Origin: Jimgerdemannia flammicorona
Taxonomy: Eukaryota
NCBI GenBank assembly: GCA_003990765.1
Contig: RBNJ01000238.1
Location: 1-35,803, forward strand
Length of the DNA: 35,803 nucleotides
Direction of reading: 5' to 3'
Numbering within the stretch: position 1 is the stretch's first letter; every line of letters starts with the position of its first letter. The translations under genes were made by a program, and so were the position numbers. Shown here piece by piece: positions 5,832-24,900 of the stretch. The notes beneath the pieces were generated by a model. The model had not been told where the DNA came from, searched no databases, and worked only from the letters and a program-made list of their open reading frames with translations.

Positions 5832-6868
5832 ATGAGCTCATTAAACAAGGAACTATTCGGCTCGGATGATGAAGATGACGACGACGAAGTTTTCGGCGCC
5901 CAATCCCCTTTTTCCGAACCAGATGATCTCCCACCTGACGACGCCACCGGCCGAACCTCGCACGACTTCCATCCCGATCTCTACACCCCTTCATTTGACC
6001 CCTCCAACCTTGACCTCTTCCCCTCCATACCGGGCCTCGTACTCTTACGGTCGGCCTTGACGCACGCCCAGCAGTCTGCCATCGTCAGGGCTGTCATCGA
6101 CGGCGGGTACTTCGCCACGCCGGAACAGAACCAGACAATGCATTTCGGGAAGCTGCCGCCGCACGTGGACTGGTTGGGTGGGTGGACGGTCGAGGTGCAA
6201 AGGAAGTTAAAGGAGGAGGGGAGAGAAGGGTTGTTCCCGAGAGCGATTGTGGAGAGGACGCCATTGTTCGATCAGGCAATTGTGAATTTATATACGAGAG
6301 GTGTGTAGAGTTTCAGACTTGACACAATCTTAGCAAGAACTCATTCGACGCACCATCCATATAATTGTCTCATTATATTAGGCGAAGGAATTAAAAGCCA
6401 CGTGGATCTCGCAAGGTTTGTACTACCCCTCCCATCCACGCTTATAGCATCTTCATATCCCTTTAATACCTCTCAATTCATTTCCACAGATTCGCCGACG
6501 GAATTTTAATTCTGTCCCTACTGACTTCCTGTGTCATGACCATGCGCCCGGCATCTGAGGCCTCCAAAGTCGCCACCACCTACAACACCAACACTCTCAC
6601 CACTTCCACCGTCTCTATTCCTGTTCTACTTCGGCCAGGCGACGTTCTCTCGCTCTCGGGCCCGGCGCGGTACGACTGGGAGCACGGGATTGAGGAGCGG
6701 ATGTTTGACGTGTTGCCGGATGGGGAGAGGATCCAGAGAGGGACTAGGATAAGTGTTACTTTGAGAAGAATGATGGGTGACGGAGTTGTGATTAGTGGAG
6801 AAGTGGAAGGAGAAGAGGAGAGAGGGAAGGAAAGGGAAAGCTGGGTAACTGCTGGGAGAAGGAAATAA
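5832..6868 (+). CDS. AlkB-family 2OG-Fe(II) dioxygenase; exons 5832-6300, 6382-6415, 6490-6868
   Basis: GT-AG splicing gives an open frame with DQAIVNLY..GEGIKSHVD (HxD), ILSL, LLRPGDVLSLSGPARYDWEHGI (distal H) and RISVTLR (RxxxxxR). Confidence 0.9.
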
Positions 6869-7125: not shown

Positions 7126-8040
7126 TTACACCCAATCCAGGGGACAATTGCCATCGGAGCGCCACCCATTTATGCAACCGGTGGAGGCCAATGTTGTTCC
7201 CTTTAAACGAACAGGGAATGAGCGAGCACGCATGGATTGTGAGCCTGATTCCTTCGTGTAGCTGCGCACAATTCTTCACATAGTTCCAACATACAAGAGA
7301 GATTCAGCTCGGTCAGGCCGTGTTTTGGTTCAGAGACTCGGATATGGCGCGTTTACCCTCGCCGCCGATGCTATTCCCTTAAAATGAACAGGGGATGTGC
7401 GATTACGTACAGACTGCGAGCTTGATTCCTTCACACAACAGACAAAATGCATCACATAGTTCTGACATCAGCTCGGTCAAGGTCATGTTCTGTTTCAGAC
7501 ATTCGGCTAGAGCACGGCTTAACAGAGATCCGATGTTGTTGGCTAAAATAAAATAGATTAAGAGCATGCCCAAAGCACGATCCGTATTTTGGCATGCTGC
7601 AGTAAACAATAATTGACATGGGTCGGGCATACAGCTGAGATCGAGTTTGTTCACGTTTGTGTTTTCCTTCAGAATCTGGACGATAATTCGTGATGCCCTA
7701 TCGTCGATGCCTTCCCTGAAGATAAACACGCAATGAGCGAACACACACGGAGATAGAGTTTGACTCCATCACTTATTTGAAAAGAGCGTGTTTCATACAA
7801 TTTTCTCATACCAGAGAGATTCAGCAGATTCGAAGTTGTGTTCTGCTTAAGAAACTCGGCTAGGATTCCCGCCAGTCCTGCTTCCTGAAGATAGGTGGAG
7901 AATAGCAAACACATATAAGCCATCACACCGCTGAAAACGATGGCTCACACAGTTATGACATACTAGAGACATCCAGCTCGCTCAGGATTGTGTTCTCAGC
8001 TAGGGCGTGGGATTCGGCCATGCCAGTACCTTCCCCTAGA
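7126..8040 (-). pseudogene. RNI-like LRR array remnant (six exon units), 5' part missing
   Basis: Units such as ANNIGSLLSRALAECLKQNMTLTEL, GNSIGGEGKRAISESLNQNT and EGIDDRASRIIVQILKENTNVNKLDLS are separated by introns homologous to those at 26766-28400. One donor is deleted and one exon frameshifted. Confidence 0.8.
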
Positions 8041-8224
8041 TATAGATGAGGTTGTGAGTCAATTGTGGTATGTCAAATCTGCTGTTGTAGGTCATTCATT
8101 AATCGGTCACCGCCGCCTCCCACTCGCCACCGTTGCCTGAACAAGACACGAAACAAGAATACAAATACCCTCCAGCTAACGTAATAATCTGTCGTCCCGC
8201 GATGCTACTGTGACAAGAAAACAT

Positions 8225-9179
8225 TATAGTATAGCCAGATGACGTGCAAAACACTCAGCATAGTTACCCCACATAGTTACCCTTTGTGCCACCCATTGTA
8301 TAAATAGCTGACATACTAAATTAGGACAAACTTTGTGCCTCCAGGGTACACCTATACCCTAAAGGAACACCTGTGCTCTGAAGGAACACCTGTTCCCTAA
8401 AGGAACACCTTCCTAAATTAGCCTTACTGTGCATTTTATAATTAGCTATATAATAATTAGTTAGCAACTATAACTATATAAAATACCTCAGTGATATGTA
8501 AAAGTGAATAAATCTTAGTTTGAAAAGTTCAAAAGCAAAAGACAAGTCTGCCTAATACACTTTGAGGAATATATCTGCCAAAAGCCACTTAATCCAGAAA
8601 GGATTGTAACACTTAGAAGAAATGTCTGCTCTACAACCATTACTTAGGAGATTGTGAGCTTCTTTTTTCACTCTAGTCTACTTTTCAATATAAAGAAGAG
8701 AAATCCCTTATCTCTTACCTAAGCCAGTCAACTATATACATCTTTATAGTAAACTCATTTATACAAATAAAGCAGTCAATTGATGAAACTTTGCTAAAAA
8801 AAAAGTCTGCTGATTTTGGTCTGCTTACTAAATTAAACCTAAATTTGAGAACTCTACTATTTTTAATCTACTTACTAAATGAAGCCTGAATTATCTACCA
8901 AAGTTTAAGTAAAGAACTTAGCTATAATATTCAGAGAAATCTGTCAGATACAGAACCTATGCTATTAGAGAATAATCTACTAAATCTGCCTTATTATACA
9001 GAATCTGTCTAATAAGAAAATTGCTAAAATTACTTATATTATATAAACTAAAGAACTCATACTTTTAGAAAACAACCAAATTTTTATTACTTTTGACAAA
9101 GTAACTAAAGACTTAAGCCAATCTATATAGTAGCTCCAATCTTATAATTTACCTCTCTTGAGCTAGTATGTATATTATA
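8225..9179 (+). repeat. 5' LTR
   Basis: Aligns with 14603-15476. Starts tatagt (<tgtagt) and ends tatattata (<tacactaca); carries extra internal blocks relative to LTR2. Confidence 0.85.
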
Positions 9180-9181
9180 TT

Positions 9182-9198
9182 TGGGAGCTCAACTAGGA
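9182..9198 (+). promoter_or_regulatory. Primer-binding site, tRNA-Pro type
   Basis: tgggagctcaactagga lies 2 nt after LTR1 and equals TGGGGGCTCAACCGGGA after reversing three transitions, the expected complement of a tRNA-Pro 3' end. Confidence 0.65.
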
Positions 9199-10650
9199 AG
9201 ATTTTTTTCAAATCTATATAACTTTTTAGCTTACAAAAATTTAACAACCAAATTGGATACATTTGATACAATACTAATCTCTACTATTATGGAAGATTAA
9301 ATCATTAGTAGTATTTAGACAGAAAGAAAAATAATTATCTTAAGACTTATCAACTATCTAGTATTAGAAGAATTTCAACCAGATATTAGTATAGCTTAAA
9401 ATTCTCAATTAGCATCAGCTCAATTACCTTGTAAATATTCCAAAAATACTAGCAGACTTATATATTACTAAGAGATCTGATCCAGCTAGACCAACTAGAT
9501 AATATAGAAAATTCTATCTAAAATTCAATAAACTTGCATAAGAACTTAAAGAATATATTATCAGATTTCTATTCTTCTTAAAAATCTCATCTATTTCTCT
9601 CTTATCTGGACCAGCAGATCTTTTAAGTCTAGTATCTTTAAGAATACCAAGAGATATCTCAGTACTCTAAAGACCAAGTATATATCCTTCAACTCTTTCA
9701 ACTTCCAGTAGCTCAATCAGACTTAGTATACTCATAATAAGTAAAATAGATTCAAAAACTAAAAAAGAACTATATAGAAGACAGTGACAACAAAATGATA
9801 ATACTATTATCTATATTTGTAGAATATCTAGAAGAAGACCTAAGGAAATTTCTAAATACTCTTGAAAAAATTACAGTTCTGAAGAATCTTACTTCCAGAA
9901 GATGAATTGTAGTCTTCAAAATATAACTAAGAGAGCTAGCTAAAGAAATATTTACCAAAATATCAAATAACCCAAACTCTGATCTAGGATAAGCTATAGC
10001 TGATATATACCATTATACAGACTAGTATAAAGCTATCTTCTACTGACTTATTGAAGAGTATACAAGAACAAAAACTTACTACAAAGTTTAAGAATCTATT
10101 ATAGATATAAAGATAAATCTTGAAAATCTCCATAAGTATTCTTCACAAACATTCAGAAGAGAATATATACTACTAAATTTAGTACTATTAATTAAGATAT
10201 TATTAATCTAATGATCTTTATATATAAATAGAATTCCTCTCAACATTACTTAGTATATCTATACTCTTAATATCAAGAAGCCTAATGAATAAGTAAATAT
10301 AGCCTAAGGATACTTTGATATCAAGTAAGGAATTACTTGGAATGATAATAAGAAAGAAGACAAGAAAGATCTCTTGACTAAAACTCTCCAAGGGATTCTT
10401 TAAAAAAACCTAAGAGAGAAGAAATCTATAAAGTAGAGGAAAGATAAGAATAAAATCCAAGACCTCAGCTCTAAACTAGACTAATTAGATAAATAAATCA
10501 AAAAGACTCACTATATGTGAAAATCAGAGCTACCTATAAGATAACAGAAGTTATATACTATAAAGAAATTAAAATTACCTATTTAGAGATAATAAAAGCA
10601 ACCAACTATAAGAAAAAAAAAAGTACTTACTCTGAGATAGAGCTCAAGTT

Positions 10651-10700
10651 CAATACTTCTACTGTGGATAGTTTGGATACTATACTATAGAATATTGCAA
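10651..10700 (+). pseudogene. Gag CCHC zinc knuckle remnant
   Basis: caa tac ttc tac tgt gga tag ttt gga tac tat act ata gaa tat restores to Q-C-F-Y-C-G-Q-F-G-H-Y-A-x-E-C (CX2CX4HX4C). Confidence 0.75.
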
Positions 10701-11329
10701 TAGAAGAAGTAACTAAAGAGATTCAGAATTACTAAATCAAAAGAATATAACCTATATAGTATAAGAAGACTAAAGCTCAAGATTTGAAAGAAGTAATAGT
10801 GAAGACTATAGTAATCTAGACTTAAGGTCATCTTTAAGAAGACAGTCTACCCTACTAAGAAAAGAAAAAGACTAGTAAAAAAGTCATCTAGAAGAGTAGA
10901 CAGAAGAACTATCCAGGAGGAAGATAGAGAAGATGAGAAAGAGCAGATTAAAATATCTCTCCAGTCTCTCTCATCTTTTATCTCTGAGACTACAACTTAT
11001 AAAGAAAGTCACTTATCTGAAAATAAAGAAATAGAGCAGAAAGAATAAGAGCCTATTACTTTAAAGCTAAAGAAGAAGTATGCCCCAAAAACCAAGTCTT
11101 GAGACATCTATAATGAAGCTTGGCAAAAGATTCAAGAAGTCAAGATAGAAGTTCCTCTCCTATAGTTCTTATAATTGATACTTACTGGAGTTTAAAACAA
11201 ACTACTGAGAACCATCAGATCCAACACTGACTGAGTCTCAATCTCACAATAAGAACTAGTACCAACTACTATCCAGATTGCCAAAAGATATATCAGTATA
11301 TATTTGCAGAGAAATATTAGAGAACAAAG

Positions 11330-11580
11330 GTGAAAATCCTCATTAACATAGAAGTAGTCATCTATATCATTACTAAAAGATTTCTAAATACTCTACAGTA
11401 ATCTATTGATAAGCTATCTAATCTCAGTATTATAGTAGCAAATGGAGCATAAACTCAACCCTTAAGAGAAGTATGAAATATCACTATCACTCTTAAATAC
11501 TTCTAGTTTTCTGTTCTGAAGGCTATTGTTACTAAAACTATTACTTATAATATAATCCTTGGTACTAACTGAATGAAAGA
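11330..11580 (+). pseudogene. Retroviral-type aspartic protease remnant
   Basis: ctc att aac ata gaa gta restores to LIDTGA; tat aat ata atc ctt ggt act aac tga restores to YDVILGTDW. Confidence 0.75.
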
Positions 11581-12769
11581 AATGTATATAGTTATTTATA
11601 TTGACTAACAAACAGATGCTCAAATTTGACTATAAAGAAAAGAAGTATCAAAATCAAGGTAACTATCTATAAGTAGTCTAAGAAGAAGAAGATTATTATT
11701 CAGGAAGAATATACTAGCAGTAAAGAATTTACTACAAAGAAGAGAGAAGAATCTAAAGATGAAAATAATTCTAGACTTTACCTACAAATCAATCTAGTAG
11801 ATGATAGACCAGAAGACAATATATAAATATAAGATACTATCACTATTACAATTAGAACTATTGCAAAATAAGCTGAAAAATGCTTTATCTGTCTCAAAGA
11901 CACAAGTACTCTAAACACTCTTCCAAGATTATTAGAATAAGAAACTCATCTGATACAGTCTGTCCTGAATATAGAAAAAGAAAGAAGAAATATAATTACT
12001 TATAAAAGATACTCAAAACTGAAGCTATAGAAGTACAAGTAATCTAAGAATAAGAAATAACTGATGAAGAAATTCCAAAACCAGAAAAACTCCCTGAATT
12101 AATTCTCTAAGATGACTCTTACTAGATATTATTAGAAGATGATGATCTCTGAAATATTGAAGAAGAACTAAGCATATTTACTATTATCTCAAGATAAGAA
12201 ATAAATAAGAAAAGAGCCTTTTAGCTAAGAAGATACCAGTATCAAATAGTCTTCTACTCTTTCCAAAACTACTACTATTAGTACTACTTATTGAATCAAT
12301 AAGAAAAATAAAGATACTATGAACTAATATCTCTAGTAATTATTATATAGATAATTATATTTTAAGAAATAACTACCATATTGACAAAATGATTCTATAG
12401 AAGAGACCACTTCATCTGTATAGAAGTATAGCCCTTAGCTACCTTTCTCTCTATCTATAACAGAGAGGATTACTGATTTTTAAAATAATAAGAAGTTGAT
12501 GACTAAAAACAGTACTTCTAAGCAATAGAATACTATCTTTATAGAAAATATCTATGCTGCTAAACCTACTAGCATGAGAAGATAAATCTCAGTTAAGATA
12601 TTATAGTATATATACTTAAGAGAGAAGATAACAGAACTAAGATCCAAAAAGACTAAGTCAAGAAATCTACAAAAAGGACCCTCAAGATCTGTGACCTAGA
12701 AGATAATATTTTAGCTCTTATCAGATATATAACTTGTAAACTCTCTTTTCTCTACTATCTTACTGGTCA

Positions 12770-13915
12770 CAAGATTTGGTAGACAACCTTCTGAGTTTCT
12801 TTTCTATAACTTATACTCTCTTTATCTTGGATTAGTTTGCTATACCTATTGTAGAATAGTGGAAGAAAGATAATAGTAATAAGTTATATCTTTATTGATA
12901 TCAAATCAGTATCTTCTTTACTTTTTTATAGTTTCTGATACCTCTGGCTATATCTGAGATATACCTGTTTAGTGTGGTATAATTATAGTATATTATAAGC
13001 TATATAGAGAGTTGGTTAATCTTAGGTATTAAGTATTAGTATAAGTTACCTATAGGTTATCAGTACCTATAGTGGGGCCCTCTGAGCTTTGGTGAGTTTT
13101 CTGATAAGTATAGTTCTAGCATAGATAATTGTTTTTTAAGTGAGATCAGAATAGAAGAGGAGATGGCCATTACAGATAAGAGGATGAGTGATAATAATAG
13201 ACTGGTCAGATATCAGACTAGTAATAATTATCAGGGCTAGAGTGAGTGCTGCATTAGTGGAGCCTTCTGATTAGTATAGAGTGATTAGGTAATAGGTGTC
13301 ACTCTTGGCTACTTTTGGTAATATATAAGATTAGACCATAGTTATTAAAGGTAGTCAGGGAGTTTGAGGCTATCTAGGTTAGATATCTTGACTATACTTA
13401 ACTGAAACTAGGAGCTGATATAGCAATATAATCAAGGCCCACAGGCTTAAGTAGTAGGGTATTGGGAATCTTTTTTTATCTCATGGATAAGTTTTCTACT
13501 CATCTTATTGGAGAAAATCAGATCTTATCTACTATTCTATATTTTGAAAGGAGTTTTTTATTGTCTTTTACTCTATTTAAAATAGTAGAGACTATACAAA
13601 TTGACTTGAGTATAGCCTTGTATATATGTTATGGTTTTGGCTATATACCTTTAGTTATTGACATATGGTTGCTTTTCTCCTAATAATAGAGAGAGTATAG
13701 TATACAGAATAAGATATAGACTAACTTAAGCCCTACTGTGTCTGGTATAATTGAGCTACTAGACAATAGCTAGCCTAGGTTTAATAGAGATATAGTGCTC
13801 AGAGAGTAATGAAAGAGGGGTTTGGTCTATATAGTCTAGGTTTTCTTTTAATAAAAATCTATAGAACTTGAGTCTATTAAAAAAAAATAAAAAAAAAAAT
13901 AAAAAAAATAAAATA
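12770..13915 (-). mobile_element. Nested opposite-strand insertion with a probable Tc1/mariner transposase N-terminal HTH remnant (~13440-13690)
   Basis: Purine/pyrimidine skew reverses relative to the host element. The minus strand restores to about RHIAKT...TVSTILNR...SGRDPIFSDRTSRKLVREVKKDPR. Boundaries are approximate and TIRs unconfirmed. Confidence 0.45.
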
Positions 13916-14147
13916 TACAACTTACTGAGAATAGATAAAGGATATCATCAACTTTATAGAAACTTTAGACTCTACTAACAGAAGAGAAATTAACTATCTC
14001 TAAGACCTCTCTACTGAAGCCAGATGGCTATATCTTGATATTAAAGTATAGAGACTCTTAACTACAAGAGCCTCAGCTCAAGAACAGCCTGCTCTCAGCA
14101 AGAATATTACATAGTATATCTTACTATATCTTGAAGCCAGACTCTCA

Positions 14148-14520
14148 ATGAAAGCTCACAAAGAAGATATAGATTATAATCTTTGCAGTCTCTAAGATAA
14201 AACTATTAATTCTGAAAACACAGTACTTTTTAGTATAAAACTTACTATATAGTCACCCAAAGGCTTATATTTAACTGATCTCAAGATCTGGACTTACAAA
14301 ATAAGGAGTTAGTATAGAAGAAGAAATAACAGACCCTGGATATATAGATAAAATCAAGGTTATTCTGAAGAATAGCAATACTAAATAGATTCAAATCTAT
14401 AGAGAAGAGAAAATTTCCCAAGTAGTCTTTATAAAGGTTAAGATATCTCAATTTCAGAAAGTTTCTAAACTAACCTAGATACAGAAGGAGTTAATAATAT
14501 AGATATCAATATAGAAGATA
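14148..14520 (+). pseudogene. Trimeric dUTPase remnant inside the LTR element
   Basis: Directly readable SRSGLTK, DPGY..KIKVILKN and EKISQVVF; restored KAH..DAGYDL, RSGLA, GGV.DPGYTGEIKVIL, GEKISQ (dUTPase motifs 1-4). Confidence 0.85.
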
Positions 14521-14602
14521 TCTATAAATATTAGAATAATGACTAAAGAACAATCTGAGGACAGACCATTCTTTAGTAAAGGTTAATATAATAAGTAAAT
14601 AT

Positions 14603-15476
14603 TATAGTATAGCTAGATAATATATAAAATACTCAGTATAGTTACTCTACATAGTTACTCTTTATACTACTTATTGTATAAATAGCTGATATACTAAATT
14701 AGAACAAATTTTATATCTCTAGAATATATCTATATCTTAAGAGAATATCTGTACTCTGAAGAAACATCTGTTCCCTAAGATAATACTTTTCTAAATTAGC
14801 CTTACTATATATTTTATAATTAGTCATATAGTAACCAGTTAGCAATCCCAACTGTATAAAATATCCTAGTAATAAAAGTGAATAAACCTCAGGATGAAAA
14901 GTTCAAAAGCAAAAGATAAGTCTATGTAATATACTTCAAGAGATATGTCTACTAAAAGTTACTTAATCTAGAAAGGATTGCAATACTTAGGAGATTGTGA
15001 GCTTCCTTTTCTACCCTTATCTGCTTTCTGATATAAAGAAGAGAAGTCCCTCATCCCTTGCTTAAGCCAGTCAACCAGATACATCTTTGTAGTAAATTCA
15101 TTTGTATAAATGAAGTAGTTAATTGATATAACTTTACCAAGAAAAGTCTGCTAATTTTAGTCTACTTGCCAGATAAAGCCTGGATTATCTGCCCAAAGTT
15201 CAAGTAAAGATCTTAGCCATGACATCCAGAGAAATCTGTCAGATACAGAATCTGCACCATTAGAGAATAATCTGCTAAATCTGCCTTGTTATGCTGAATC
15301 CACCTAATAAGGAAATCACCAAAATTGCCCACATTATGTGAACCAGAGAACTCATACTTTTAGAAAACAACTGAACATTTTGTTACTTTTGACAAAGTAA
15401 CTAGGGGCTCAAGCCAATCTACATAGAAGCCCCAACCTTGTAATTTGCCTCCATTGAGCCGGCACGTTACACTACA
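14603..15476 (+). repeat. 3' LTR
   Basis: Homologous to 8225-9179; ends ...gttacactaca (canonical CA end, inverted relative to the restored tgtagt start). Confidence 0.85.
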
Positions 15477-21499: not shown

Positions 21500-21918
21500 G
21501 GACCATTCCCGGATGGACGAGGCGCCGTAGGCGCCGAAGTCTGTCCCAGACTTTGCGAGCTTTGTGGAGGACCGTGAGGAGTTGGTTTCTGCCATCCTGA
21601 AAGTAAACATATATACATGTGGTTTTCATCTGTCTAAGACCTATGTGTGAGACATGTAAAACATAGTAATAAAAGAATGTCTCCCACTCCCACAGAGTCC
21701 CTTAGCCCAGAAAGCTTGGCATGTGAGCCCAGGAAAGGAAAACCCCGAAGGGGAAAAAGGAAAAAAGCCGAGTGGAAAGCATGACCGGAAGAAGGAAGAG
21801 AAGGAAAAACGGGTTGGGATAGGGCAGGAAACCAACTCCTCATGGTCCTCTACAAAGTTTTTAAAGTTTGGGACAGACTTCAGCACCTATGGTGCCTCAT
21901 CCATCTGGGACTAAGTCT
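21500..21918. repeat. DIRS terminal sequence (21500-21597) and its inverted internal complementary region (21817-21918)
   Basis: cccggatggacgaggcgccgtaggcgccgaagtctgtccc... aligns with the reverse complement of ...gggacagacttcagcacctatggtgcctcatccatctggg over about 100 bp. Confidence 0.9.
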
Positions 21919-24900
21919 TGCTTTGTTCTGGACCATTTCAGAGTTGGTTGTTCATAGACTGAAGGCAAGTAGAGCACCAGAGAGGTGTCTTGCAGATGTC
22001 CTGGCCCTTATGCTAGAGGACTATATAGACCAGAGAGGAAGCCCAAGCTTCTTCAGAAAGGGCAGGTGTCTGATGGAAAAAGATGGTAATGGTACTTGAA
22101 GGTTGTCTGAGAGCTCCAGTTACTGCTCTTGAGGATCTTACAATGGGTATGTCTTCTTCCAGGGCCTCAGTAGAAGACTCTACTCAGATAGAGTGTGAGC
22201 AGTAAATAGGATTAATATCTGCCACTACTATATACTTGGAAAATCAGTTATAAAGATGATCAGAGGTGAGGTTGTGATATAGAGAGTACATACTGATGAA
22301 AAGATAGTTATGTATCATTAATAGGGAGGTAGAGTGGCTTTATCTTGTAAGTTCAACAGAAAGCTCAGTAGACAAGATATAGATCCCTATCTTCTAGAAG
22401 AGTAAAGATGGAGTGGGAGACCTTGGTGGCAATGTTGAGAGTATATTTCTTGATCATATCAGTCATCAGGACTATCTTGGTCAGCCAATCATCCATGCTA
22501 CTGCAAAAACTAATAGTAGCCTGGTATCTAATAAAGTTGCTGGCCTCTCTCAAAGATATACATGAGGTCAGTAGAGTATGGATCTTCTTGTCATACATAT
22601 AAGATCTGAGATTTGAGATCATTATAAGAGCCCAAAGAAGTCAGCTACTATATAAGAGAGGCCACATCTCATTGGCTGAACTTGTTCTTAGAAGGAGGGA
22701 GTAAAGGTTAGTAGTACCTCAGATAAGATGAGTGATAAAAGAAAGGGTGAAAAAATGGGCTCTATATATCATGAGCATCTACTATCTAATGGTCATATAA
22801 ATACTATAAAGTTGATGAGTACTCATTCTCTCCTAGAAGAGCTGAGCCAAGCAGTAGATATACTATTTAGTAGTAGTATACATAGGATCAATATACTATC
22901 AATAGTACTAATGAGCATAGTATTAGAAGGCAGACTCATAGTTCTTATAGGAGGAAGTCTAAATACTAATCCAGATAAGTTGGTAAGTCTATAGTACTAG
23001 TATAGTAGTATTAGGAGATTGCTATTAATTTGTCATACTAGAGTGATCTAGCATATCATCTTGGTCATCAATGCTATTATTAGAAAGTAAGAAAAAAGGA
23101 AAATAGAAGATACTGTGGCTATACTGAGAAGTTTAGATTATTAGCTCTATTACATCTAAAATAGTATAATGAGAATGAGATATTAGTAGCAGTTTATCTT
23201 AACCTTGTATAGGATATAATTAATGAGAATCTAGAGCAGGTTAGTATATACTCTATAGGCTGACCAAAAGTATCAGAATACATCTATCTTCAGGGTCTCA
23301 AGATCTGCTCAATAACTATAAAAAAGTGGAGTTTGGACTATTATCTAGAATATAAAAAGATTCAGAAAGATGGGGCCCCATTGAAGGAGGTGGTAGAAGA
23401 CCTGAGAGTTTAGTTGTCAGTCATTAGAGTATAGATAGATATAGCTGAGAAAGTCTGTCCATATATTTTCAGTACTGGAGATATGTTTGACAAAGAGGAG
23501 AATCTTCTTTATCAGATAGAGATGATAGATCCAGACTATATCAGTATTTAGATAGTAGAGAGAGCTTCTCTACTTATTGATGAATATTTTTATAGTCATG
23601 TTGTCTATCTATATGAGAACTATGATTCTCTCAATGGTAGCTATTGATCTATAAGGCAAAAAGGACTATTTTGAGCTCTCAGTAATTGATGAATTGACCT
23701 CTCTCCCATGGAGTTCAGGAGCTCATTATCTGATATATGGTACATAAGATACTAATAGTAGAGGCAATATTGAAACCCCATCTATAATTACTTACATCAG
23801 TATTGATAGTAGCTTCAGAGTACTCAGAGAGTAGAGATCTATTATTCTACTCAGCCAGATCAAGAGACTACTACTGTAGATTATTACATAATATTAGAGA
23901 AATAGTTATCAGACTGTTTCAATTATTGTTACTTATTGTCAGGGCTCTCTGAATGTCCTGAATCAAAAATCAAACCTAGAAATAAGCTGAAAAAACCATC
24001 TGAGTTATAGAGTTATACAGGCCCACCAGAGATGTGATGTTGTAGATCAGAGTTAGGGCTACATAGTAAAGAAGAGAGGCATTTTTCTTATAAATCTTAT
24101 AGTGGTAGATATAGTTCTATCTTGATAGTATTGACCAGAAACCCCAAGAAAGTCTGTTGTTGATGGAGTTTTCAGATATATTTGATAGGGTGTAGGAGAA
24201 ACTCCAGCACTTCTAAATAGTAGTAGACAATCTTTCCATGACAAAGAACTTCTTCTATAAGAAGGCTAGAAGATAGATATCATTAATATAGTAGGTCAAC
24301 CAGATGCTCTATAATTAGAGAAGTATCAGAATAGCTACTATTATCTTCATCTATATCTAGAGGGCAGATAATAGCCTAAATAACATAATCTAGAACTTCT
24401 AGTTGATCTGGTATTAGCAAAAGGTCAGAAACTATTAATTATCTAGGTAGAGAAAAATGTGAAGGTAGGTGTCCTTGATATTGATATTGATGAGATAGTC
24501 ATTCAGATGAACCATATGATAAAGAGTTTAGATTTCCTCTATCTTGAAATATAGATACTATATAAATTTATTCAATAAATATATATTAAGGTATATCTGA
24601 ATCTTGTCAATCTGGAGAACAGTAAAGATGTTGAAAAAGTATAGTAGTTTCTCTTGTAAGGTAATGTAGATAGTATCCTTATTTTAAAACTTAGTAATAG
24701 TAGTATTCACTAGAGCCTTCTCTATCTGGAATATTCTCTATTTATAGAAAAACAGAGTTTGATCCAAAGAAGGTTTAGAAAACTTATCTATTTGATCTGT
24801 ATCTTATTGTAAACAATATTGATAATTTACTAGTCAATGCCCAAGTTCTTCCATATGGCCTTAAAGATTATAAAGAGGTATGTCCCTATCTTAGAGATAA

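Follow-up and report, generated by a model that had tools for sequence, protein, structure and literature searches.

C>T decay of transposon blocks in Jimgerdemannia flammicorona tapers toward CpG-normal DNA and seemingly reflects how silent chromatin is shaped

The locus and its decayed element

The window analysed here is the whole of contig RBNJ01000238.1 (35,803 bp, forward strand; GenBank assembly GCA_003990765.1) from Jimgerdemannia flammicorona, and its subject is a decayed, apparently non-autonomous long terminal repeat (LTR) retrotransposon at 8209..15471 (+), in which the loss of C and G is graded by position. A preliminary description of this DNA had placed the element at 8225..15476; it is indeed present, with slightly different limits. 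It has the hallmarks of an LTR retrotransposon, i.e., TG..CA termini, a CTAC target-site duplication that is unmutated on both sides (8205..8208 and 15472..15475, +), and a primer-binding-site-like motif directly after the 5' LTR (9180..9200, +), which is common to 16 5'-LTR copies and which we take to resemble a tRNA-Pro primer site. LTR1 (the 5' LTR) occupies 8209..9179 (+) and LTR2 (the 3' LTR) 14587..15471 (+); queries and computations used 8209-9173 for LTR1, slightly short of its true end.

The CpG and GC profile delimits a CpG-free zone at 8245..15459, with no CpG in 7.2 kb and a GC content of 25-35%. The 7263-bp element contains 3 CpGs in all, vs. 50 and 43 in its 1-kb flanks, where CpGs are still present no more than 10 bp from either element end. 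The coding content consists of gag-like, protease, and dUTPase remnants. In the window frames, the aspartic-protease remnant (11320..11575, +) and the dUTPase remnant (14190..14480, +) are both broken by stops, and their limits are approximate. A 42-aa piece from a less decayed copy that corresponds to the protease matches RVP (PF00077) weakly and below the cut-off (E=0.007), and the dUTPase of a less decayed copy matches PF00692 (E=1e-11). Reverse transcriptase (RT) and integrase gave no match within the element when 64 open reading frames (ORFs) from other elements were used in tblastn. The protease-RT-RNase H-integrase order of Ty3/Gypsy elements was not found, and because only protease and dUTPase remnants were found, the superfamily is left unassigned; the dUTPase remnant belongs to an LTR family that seemingly lacks RT and integrase. 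Pfam annotation of the window's ORFs succeeded for 3/10 and 0/4.

The element also carries a nested mobile insertion of ~1.19 kb (12730..13918) that ends in an A-rich run and is missing at this site in the copy on contig C3. The same piece occurs at varied positions and in varied orientations in or beside LTR-family copies (the window; L007, L010, L020, L029, and L068), a distribution that suggests targeted insertion. The L010 copy is GC- and CpG-rich, i.e., young.

Reciprocal decay of the two LTRs

The alignment of LTR1 with LTR2 comprises 980 columns, of which 715 are identical, 163 are transitions, 15 are transversions, and 87 are gap columns; total divergence thus reaches 20%, vs. 1.7% for transversions. 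The preliminary description had proposed that the outer 5' end of LTR1 keeps C/G where the inner 5' end of LTR2 is converted, and that this relation is reversed at the 3' ends. Both statements are borne out by the alignment: among discordant sites in the first 200 columns, C/G is kept by LTR1 at 41 and by LTR2 at 2, and in the last 200 columns at 3 and 33, respectively. Retention of C/G falls from 1.0 at the outer end of LTR1 to 0.55 inward and rises from 0.47 at the inner end of LTR2 to 1.0 at its outer end. The trend is strong (Mann-Whitney p=2.5e-17; Spearman -0.67; 66:22 vs. 13:62 for the alignment halves, Fisher p=9e-14), a logistic slope describes it somewhat better than a single step (log-likelihood -71.1 vs. 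-74.8), and the outer:inner mutation count is 35:128.

The other copies identify C/G as the older state, since two or more of them have it at 148 of the 159 transition columns that could be tested. When both strands are counted, discordance affects 17/17 CG, 82/118 CA, 37/82 CC, and 17/120 CT sites. The changes at CpG, CpA, and CpC named earlier are therefore confirmed, and the large sparing of CpT had been overlooked. Most transversion states are found in only one of the LTRs, as are all three tested indels (4, 31, and 47 bp), so the pair bears no sign of chimerism; LTR2 lacks segments of 31 bp and ~47-49 bp, which in LTR1 lie between short direct repeats.

It had also been suggested that decay is strongest in the element interior. 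The gradient itself stands and its exact shape does not: compared with 13 other internal copies in 400-bp bins, the interior (9200..14600, +) forms a plateau with flat retention of 0.55-0.71, and the taper is confined to the outer ~1 kb. Nor is the reciprocal gradient a sufficient argument against repeat pairing, as had been supposed, since according to the accessible part of 10.1101/344036 repeat-linker-repeat constructs undergoing repeat-induced point mutation (RIP) in Neurospora show a similar profile. The question that follows is whether sparing tracks the limits of homology or those of the CpG-free block.

Decay as a function of distance from CpG-normal DNA

The family search scored 40 of 2747 candidates and yielded at least 79 LTR matches. 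From these, 36 LTR copies were extracted; without a chimeric cluster and a duplicated insertion, 34 remained, and removal of five whose flanks were cut by contig ends left 29. Block-edge distance was defined by CpG density in the flank alone, and the response was C>T change at non-CpG sites inside the LTR (8333 site observations, modelled with effects for column and for copy). Relative to the plateau, the C>T multiplier is 0.06, 0.12, 0.28, and 0.42 at 0-50, 50-100, 100-200, and 200-300 bp from CpG-normal DNA, and 0.57, 0.71, 0.79, and 0.89 at 300-450, 450-600, 600-800, and 800-1000 bp. Thus, the process reaches half strength ~350 bp into the block and is near full by 1 kb. The curve is unchanged when the window's LTRs are left out, and is the same for C and G strands; CG, CA, CC, and CT sites all taper toward CpG-normal DNA.

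Over the 29 copies, block-edge distance adds 167 (twice the log-likelihood difference, 8 df) to a model of homology-end distance, whereas homology-end distance adds nothing once block-edge distance is included (7.1, p=0.53). In line with this, the LTR end has no effect in the 11 copies that are fully embedded (p=0.37). Intact ends beside CpG-normal DNA retain 0.86 of CA+CC (11 ends), those at intermediate distance 0.62 (4 ends), outer ends beside CpG-free DNA 0.37 (12 ends), and inner ends 0.44 (19 ends); open and closed intact ends differ at p=5.5e-5. Three held-out copies behaved as predicted, with 31/36 and 22/37 at open 5' ends and 9/37 at a closed one. The earlier claim that load depends on position in the repeat block is thus upheld.

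The comparison of nested with isolated pairs leads in the same direction. The examined DNA contains 39 direct-repeat pairs, from which 28 LTR pairs and that of the window were kept, three were possible controls, and seven unclean pairs were dropped. The flanks of the 28 pairs have at most 10 CpGs per 400 bp, vs. 18-19 in the window (two left flanks were not covered). In these CpG-poor surroundings, outer and inner mutations number 486 and 467, i.e., there is no gradient, either at non-CpG sites (212:213) or in the three most decayed pairs (77:80). After trimming, 435 of 867 events are outer, where 256 (standard deviation 13) would be expected if element ends were protected like open ends. An inverted gradient in young nested elements, which terminal bases had suggested, found no support in the same outer:inner count or in the correlation with flank GC (rho 0.13, p=0.39, 50 ends). 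Two very young nested LTR elements (G000:C62 23669-28974 and C2081 6962-12248) have ~60 CpGs per kb despite CpG-poor surroundings, and their LTR differences are transitions in 8/8 cases each, mostly at CpG.

A second family and the flanks

A second decayed element, DIRS-like and with the same edge taper, lies at 21507..25580 in the window (right limit approximate). A sister copy contains a tyrosine-recombinase motif that matches PF00589 below the cut-off (E=0.0015). From 30 copies of this family, which is unrelated to the LTR family, six without a long left-end match and one with a cut flank were removed. The remaining 23 follow the same distance curve (CG 0.07 to 0.87; non-CG p=2e-15), and edge-minus-interior retention is 0.29 in 13 open copies vs. 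0.05 in 10 closed copies (p=0.001).

One insertion is present on two contigs (L026/L027; G000:C2597 and C20224) with flanks that are 97% identical, which may represent alleles of a heterozygous sample or a segmental duplication. The two versions differ by 3 transitions and 5 transversions across 303 bp of flank; within the insertion, discordance at C/G sites climbs from 0.05 to 0.19-0.28, and transversions remain steady near 2%.

The C:G>T:A transitions are restricted to repeats. Six AT-rich flanks had suggested spill-over into unique flanks, but the single one tested, on C525, consists of a young repeat family and an AT-rich remnant. The copies of a young repeat family (L110-L115), 88-94% identical over the matched stretch, end in CpG-free AT-rich DNA at 5/6 loci, which suggests an insertion preference for old transposable element (TE) blocks. 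A tandem duplication on C3101, intended as a control of unmutated gene duplicates, has 71 of 157 CG sites discordant and was dropped because it is itself a transposon and mutated.

Spectrum and tempo

The 28 LTR pairs contain 953 transitions and 75 transversions, and discordance decreases in the order CG (0.52), CA (0.17), CC (0.11), and CT (0.04). In the 25 younger pairs, rates relative to transversions, which are slightly inflated by reverse T>C changes, are 182 (115-291) for CG, 29 (19-46) for CA, 19 (13-30) for CC, and 5 (3-8) for CT. The rate is determined by the base 3' of the cytosine and depends little on the one 5' of it; among CpG contexts, TpCpG is the least affected (123/304, vs. 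122/197 for ApCpG).

Load is roughly clock-like. Pairs with greater transversion divergence have a higher CA load (rho 0.65, p=1.6e-4, 29 pairs), no strand coordination was found in the LTR pairs (388/811 vs. 384 +/- 13), and there is no excess variance of load between left and right LTRs (p=0.30). Succession of changes on the same copy is below the shuffled value (370/839 vs. 421 +/- 14), so that changes do not cluster by copy, and the deficit probably arises because a CpG that is hit on one strand no longer offers a target on the other. It looks as if load accumulates gradually rather than in bursts. In three old pairs, CA changes at 79 times the transversion rate, compared with 29 times in the 25 younger pairs; since the groups were chosen on load, this acceleration with age is only a hint. 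It should be noted that the genome still contains RT-bearing candidates by the thousand in which long frames have stayed open.

Other features of the window

Two genes, at 26776-28420 (+) and 7190-7997 (-), are built of repeated exon-intron units of ~160-180 bp with leucine-rich-repeat-like translations; they are CpG-normal despite 60-85% identity between repeats, and one ORF has no Pfam hit. A degenerate tandem array of 19-bp units with strong strand skew (1750-2452) is CpG-rich and undecayed, and a third CpG-free AT-rich block lies at the contig start (1-818) and ends near a 55-bp inverted repeat (721-836). The window further contains a cytidylyltransferase-like gene (32950-33888, -) with few close matches, mostly environmental, a piece of an AlkB-like 2OG-Fe(II) oxygenase (5832-6868, +), a C2HE zinc finger (29367-29702, -), and a tRNA-Asp gene (32589-32661, -).

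Methylation and heterochromatin genes

The gene search proposed in the preliminary description was answered in part. Three related DIM-2-type methyltransferase paralogues with catalytic PC motifs are present, on C8187 (L035), C11271 (L069), and C3657 (L038). The C8187 protein has a weak RFD domain, DUF7893, a weak BAH domain, and a DNA_methylase domain, and its best PDB matches are the Neurospora DIM2 structures 9BAQ/9BAP (136 bits, vs. 92 for DNMT1). DUF7893 is shared with Trichoderma proteins, and the best named relatives outside Endogonales are Phycomyces proteins. A DNMT1-like query matched only DIM-2-type loci (two), which is weak evidence against a canonical DNMT1; pieces on C58 and C2181 are presumably DNMT2-like, judging by their motifs. 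No RID-like gene surfaced in three exon-wise searches of low sensitivity, which scored 8, 20, and 4 candidates and used no RID query.

Heterochromatin components are also encoded: two loci with an HP1 chromo-shadow domain and one Clr4-type gene with chromo, pre-SET, and SET domains. One of the two chromo-shadow loci is an intronless HP1 copy with one stop that lies inside transposon DNA (L146, G000:C3142, locus bases ~800-1690). It shares 95-97% identity with the second gene of a tandem HP1 pair (L147, G000:C8222); it is a host heterochromatin gene that has been retrocopied or captured into a TE. The copy has 23 C>T-type changes, 19 of them at CpG, and the parent has 5 changes in the opposite direction, none at CpG; the two are unlinked and contiguous over only about 400 bp, so this comparison is a moderate test.

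A probable methylation domain with decay from within

What the mutation load in these blocks seems to reflect is the outline of silent, methylated chromatin and not repeat pairing. The account that we consider rather probable is that of a methylation domain, dependent on methylation of histone H3 lysine 9 (H3K9me) and on DIM-2, in which C>T decay proceeds gradually and tapers toward euchromatin. In this scheme, transposon blocks would be packaged as silent chromatin by Clr4-type H3K9 methylation that is read by HP1 and DIM-2-type methyltransferases, and their cytosines would be methylated in the preference CG>CA>CC>>CT. The resulting 5-methylcytosine (5mC) would turn to T gradually on either strand, by passive or enzyme-assisted deamination, at a strength set by depth inside the block and not by the repeat's own ends. 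The reciprocal pattern would then arise because two LTRs that were identical at insertion occupy opposite margins of one isolated block, and repeat ends inside other decayed repeats would not be spared because no margin exists there. The preference for a chromatin or 5mC domain over pure pairing expressed in the preliminary description thus gains support from the nested-vs-isolated comparisons, and its proviso that an ascomycete with canonical RIP might explain the pattern does not apply, because the host, Jimgerdemannia, belongs to Endogonales (Mucoromycota), in keeping with its suggestion of a lineage in which RIP is not classical; a protein encoded in the window shares 98% identity with one from J. 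flammicorona.

Several points weigh against this account. No second complete isolated LTR pair was found among the 39 direct-repeat pairs or at ten other loci, so that replication rests on single ends, the window's being the only complete pair flanked on both sides by CpG-normal DNA. Individual copies also deviate: nested pair C1088 has an inner bias (7:22, p=0.008), nested pair C3 an outer bias (14:4), and DIRS-like copy L118, although scored as closed, still keeps its edge. The model p-values ignore kinship among copies, DNA classed as CpG-normal may include young insertions, the strand-coordination tests weaken after many rounds of mutation, and a tree of 14 methyltransferase domains with long branches does not decide DIM-2 orthology. 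From other fungi, the accessible text of PMC11258239 describes 5mC in Phycomyces that peaks at TE starts and ends, with no taper; that of PMC8016269 places the Dim2-dependent mutations of Zymoseptoria at CA, with CG spared; and that of 10.1101/2022.03.13.484164 reports no C>T excess in H3K9me3 domains of Neurospora mitotic mutation-accumulation lines. Because of the last two results, methylation level is no simple predictor of fungal mutation.

A stronger version of the methylation-domain account, in which a RID-independent, DIM-2-driven defence in Endogonales actively converts C to T in heterochromatin, at roughly 20-180 times the transversion rate, during vegetative growth and with no need for pairing, is possible, although we consider it less likely than not.

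Among the alternatives, pairing-triggered, DIM-2-mediated RIP at the sexual (zygospore) stage deserves the most attention, unlikely as we judge it to be. It would recognise homology and spread over a few hundred bases; many weak rounds would add up, neighbouring repeats would fill each other's margins, and ends facing single-copy DNA would look spared. An LTR element has the repeat-linker-repeat layout, and according to the portions of the Neurospora reports that could be consulted, direct repeats are mutated more on their linker-facing sides (10.1101/344036) and DIM-2, DIM-5, and HP1 mutate the linker (10.1101/115501). The same enzymes are encoded here, and the very high transition rates, above all at CG in the younger pairs, would suit such a process. 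However, no gradient is seen in nested LTR pairs, which are laid out in the same way, and the Neurospora boundary effect given in the accessible part of 10.1101/344036 is ~150 bp, as opposed to 0.5-1 kb here. Pairing should also leak into unique flanks, yet flank CpGs persist and the target duplication is intact. Moreover, CG is the main target, neither strand nor copy clustering is seen, the HP1 parent gene is untouched within the limits of that moderate test, and the searches for RID, limited in sensitivity as they were, gave no candidate.

Alternatively, methylation might be uniform up to the boundary, and an open or transcribed neighbour, marked by N6-methyladenine (6mA) or H3K4 methylation, might provide better T:G repair or demethylation over ~1 kb. 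We give this outside protection rather little credence, even though sparing is tied to a CpG-normal neighbour and Phycomyces 5mC, as far as the accessible text of PMC11258239 goes, spans whole TEs, peaks at their ends, and is anticorrelated with 6mA. The joint taper of CG, CA, CC, and CT is what a repair effect would give, but it is equally expected from one H3K9me-dependent methyltransferase, and simple transcription-coupled repair is disfavoured because both strands taper alike.

An AID/APOBEC-like DNA deaminase acting on retroelement cDNA or on silent chromatin would account for the non-CpG C>T excess, and the dUTPase remnant of the LTR family might be read in the same sense. It is nonetheless very improbable: the changes are post-insertion, affect both strands, and form no strand-coordinated clusters, and APOBEC signatures differ from rates that are set by the 3' neighbour and insensitive to the 5' neighbour. 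Least credible of all is an artificial or chimeric origin, whether from the assembly or read inserts, from template switching between two subfamilies, or from gene conversion at the outer ends. The half-distance of ~350 bp does resemble a short-read insert size, and the assembly has 35354 contigs. However, the copies are not collapsed, being only 70-85% identical; the gradient is smooth, dependent on flank state, and seen in both families; most transversion states, like the indels, occur in one LTR only; and the twice-present insertion carries independent graded changes.

Implications

If the methylation-domain account is true, the order of events in the origin of RIP might be heterochromatin-guided mutation by DIM-2 first, with pairing and RID added later. 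If there is an active vegetative defence, the heterochromatin branch of RIP would predate the Dikarya split, and C>T load along any transposon would be a fossil read-out of chromatin-domain shape, the boundary spanning some two to five nucleosomes, in fungi not amenable to culture. On the methylation-domain account, dating by LTR divergence would be inflated about tenfold here, as the total and transversion values for the window's pair indicate, and would vary with the surroundings of the insertion. The LTR halves copied in reverse transcription would be the inner ones, which are the most damaged, and the outer promoter end is spared.

Comparison with known systems

The nested-vs-isolated test and the distance curve common to two families are new here. 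In a literature search that left subscription papers and supplements aside, no report was found on transposon hypermutation outside CpG in Endogonales or on an edge taper that depends on the neighbourhood, and the accessible part of a kingdom-wide screen (PMC12543289) places RIP-like signatures in ascomycetes only, its coverage of Endogonales depending on the genome list.

The nearest relative with a methylome is Phycomyces blakesleeanus, also of Mucoromycota, in which DIM2 is present (PMC11258239; DIM-2 also in PMC13297926) and TEs carry 5mC in CG and CHH contexts. It differs in that 5mC peaks at TE ends, the accessible text of PMC11258239 reports no mutational outcome, and it reportedly has one DIM2 and one DNMT1, whereas three DIM-2-type paralogues and no DNMT1 surfaced here. 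Zymoseptoria tritici shares TE-restricted C>T change and a DIM-2-type enzyme. Its Dim2-dependent 5mC in TEs follows CG>CA>CC with almost none at CT, co-localises with H3K9me3, and is associated with a mitotic C>T mutator (PMC8016269, as far as accessible), so that its methylation order is the mutation order observed here. However, more than 98% of its transitions occur at CA, whereas CG is fastest here; furthermore, it is an ascomycete and not a member of Mucoromycota, and no edge taper is described in the portion of PMC8016269 consulted.

Neurospora crassa RIP through DIM-5, HP1, and DIM-2 resembles the present case in heterochromatin-coupled C>T change, reciprocal profiles in direct repeats, and enzyme set. 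As far as the consulted parts of its literature describe it, it is pairing-triggered and premeiotic and leaks into single-copy DNA with a ~150-bp boundary, whereas the taper described here follows the neighbourhood over up to 1 kb, is absent from nested pairs, and accompanies a clock-like load. TpCpG hypermutation of Pucciniomycotina and CpG decay through passive 5mC deamination (PMC3318451, accessible part) likewise have CpG as the top target in repeats; in contrast, changes here are rarer at TpCpG than in any other CpG context, and CA and CC are also strongly hit.

Canonical RID-dependent RIP of Pezizomycotina also leaves repeat-restricted transitions on both strands and AT-rich relics. It acts premeiotically and is episodic, with strand-coordinated mutation in each round. 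Its preference for CpA and its confinement to ascomycete clades (PMC12543289, accessible part) differ from the order CG>CA>CC found here. CpA is not the preferred target in J. flammicorona, and homology does not set the extent of mutation with both partners mutated. Thus, the system departs from canonical RIP in both of these features and resembles in its behaviour the form of C>T mutation in fungi that runs through heterochromatin and DIM-2.

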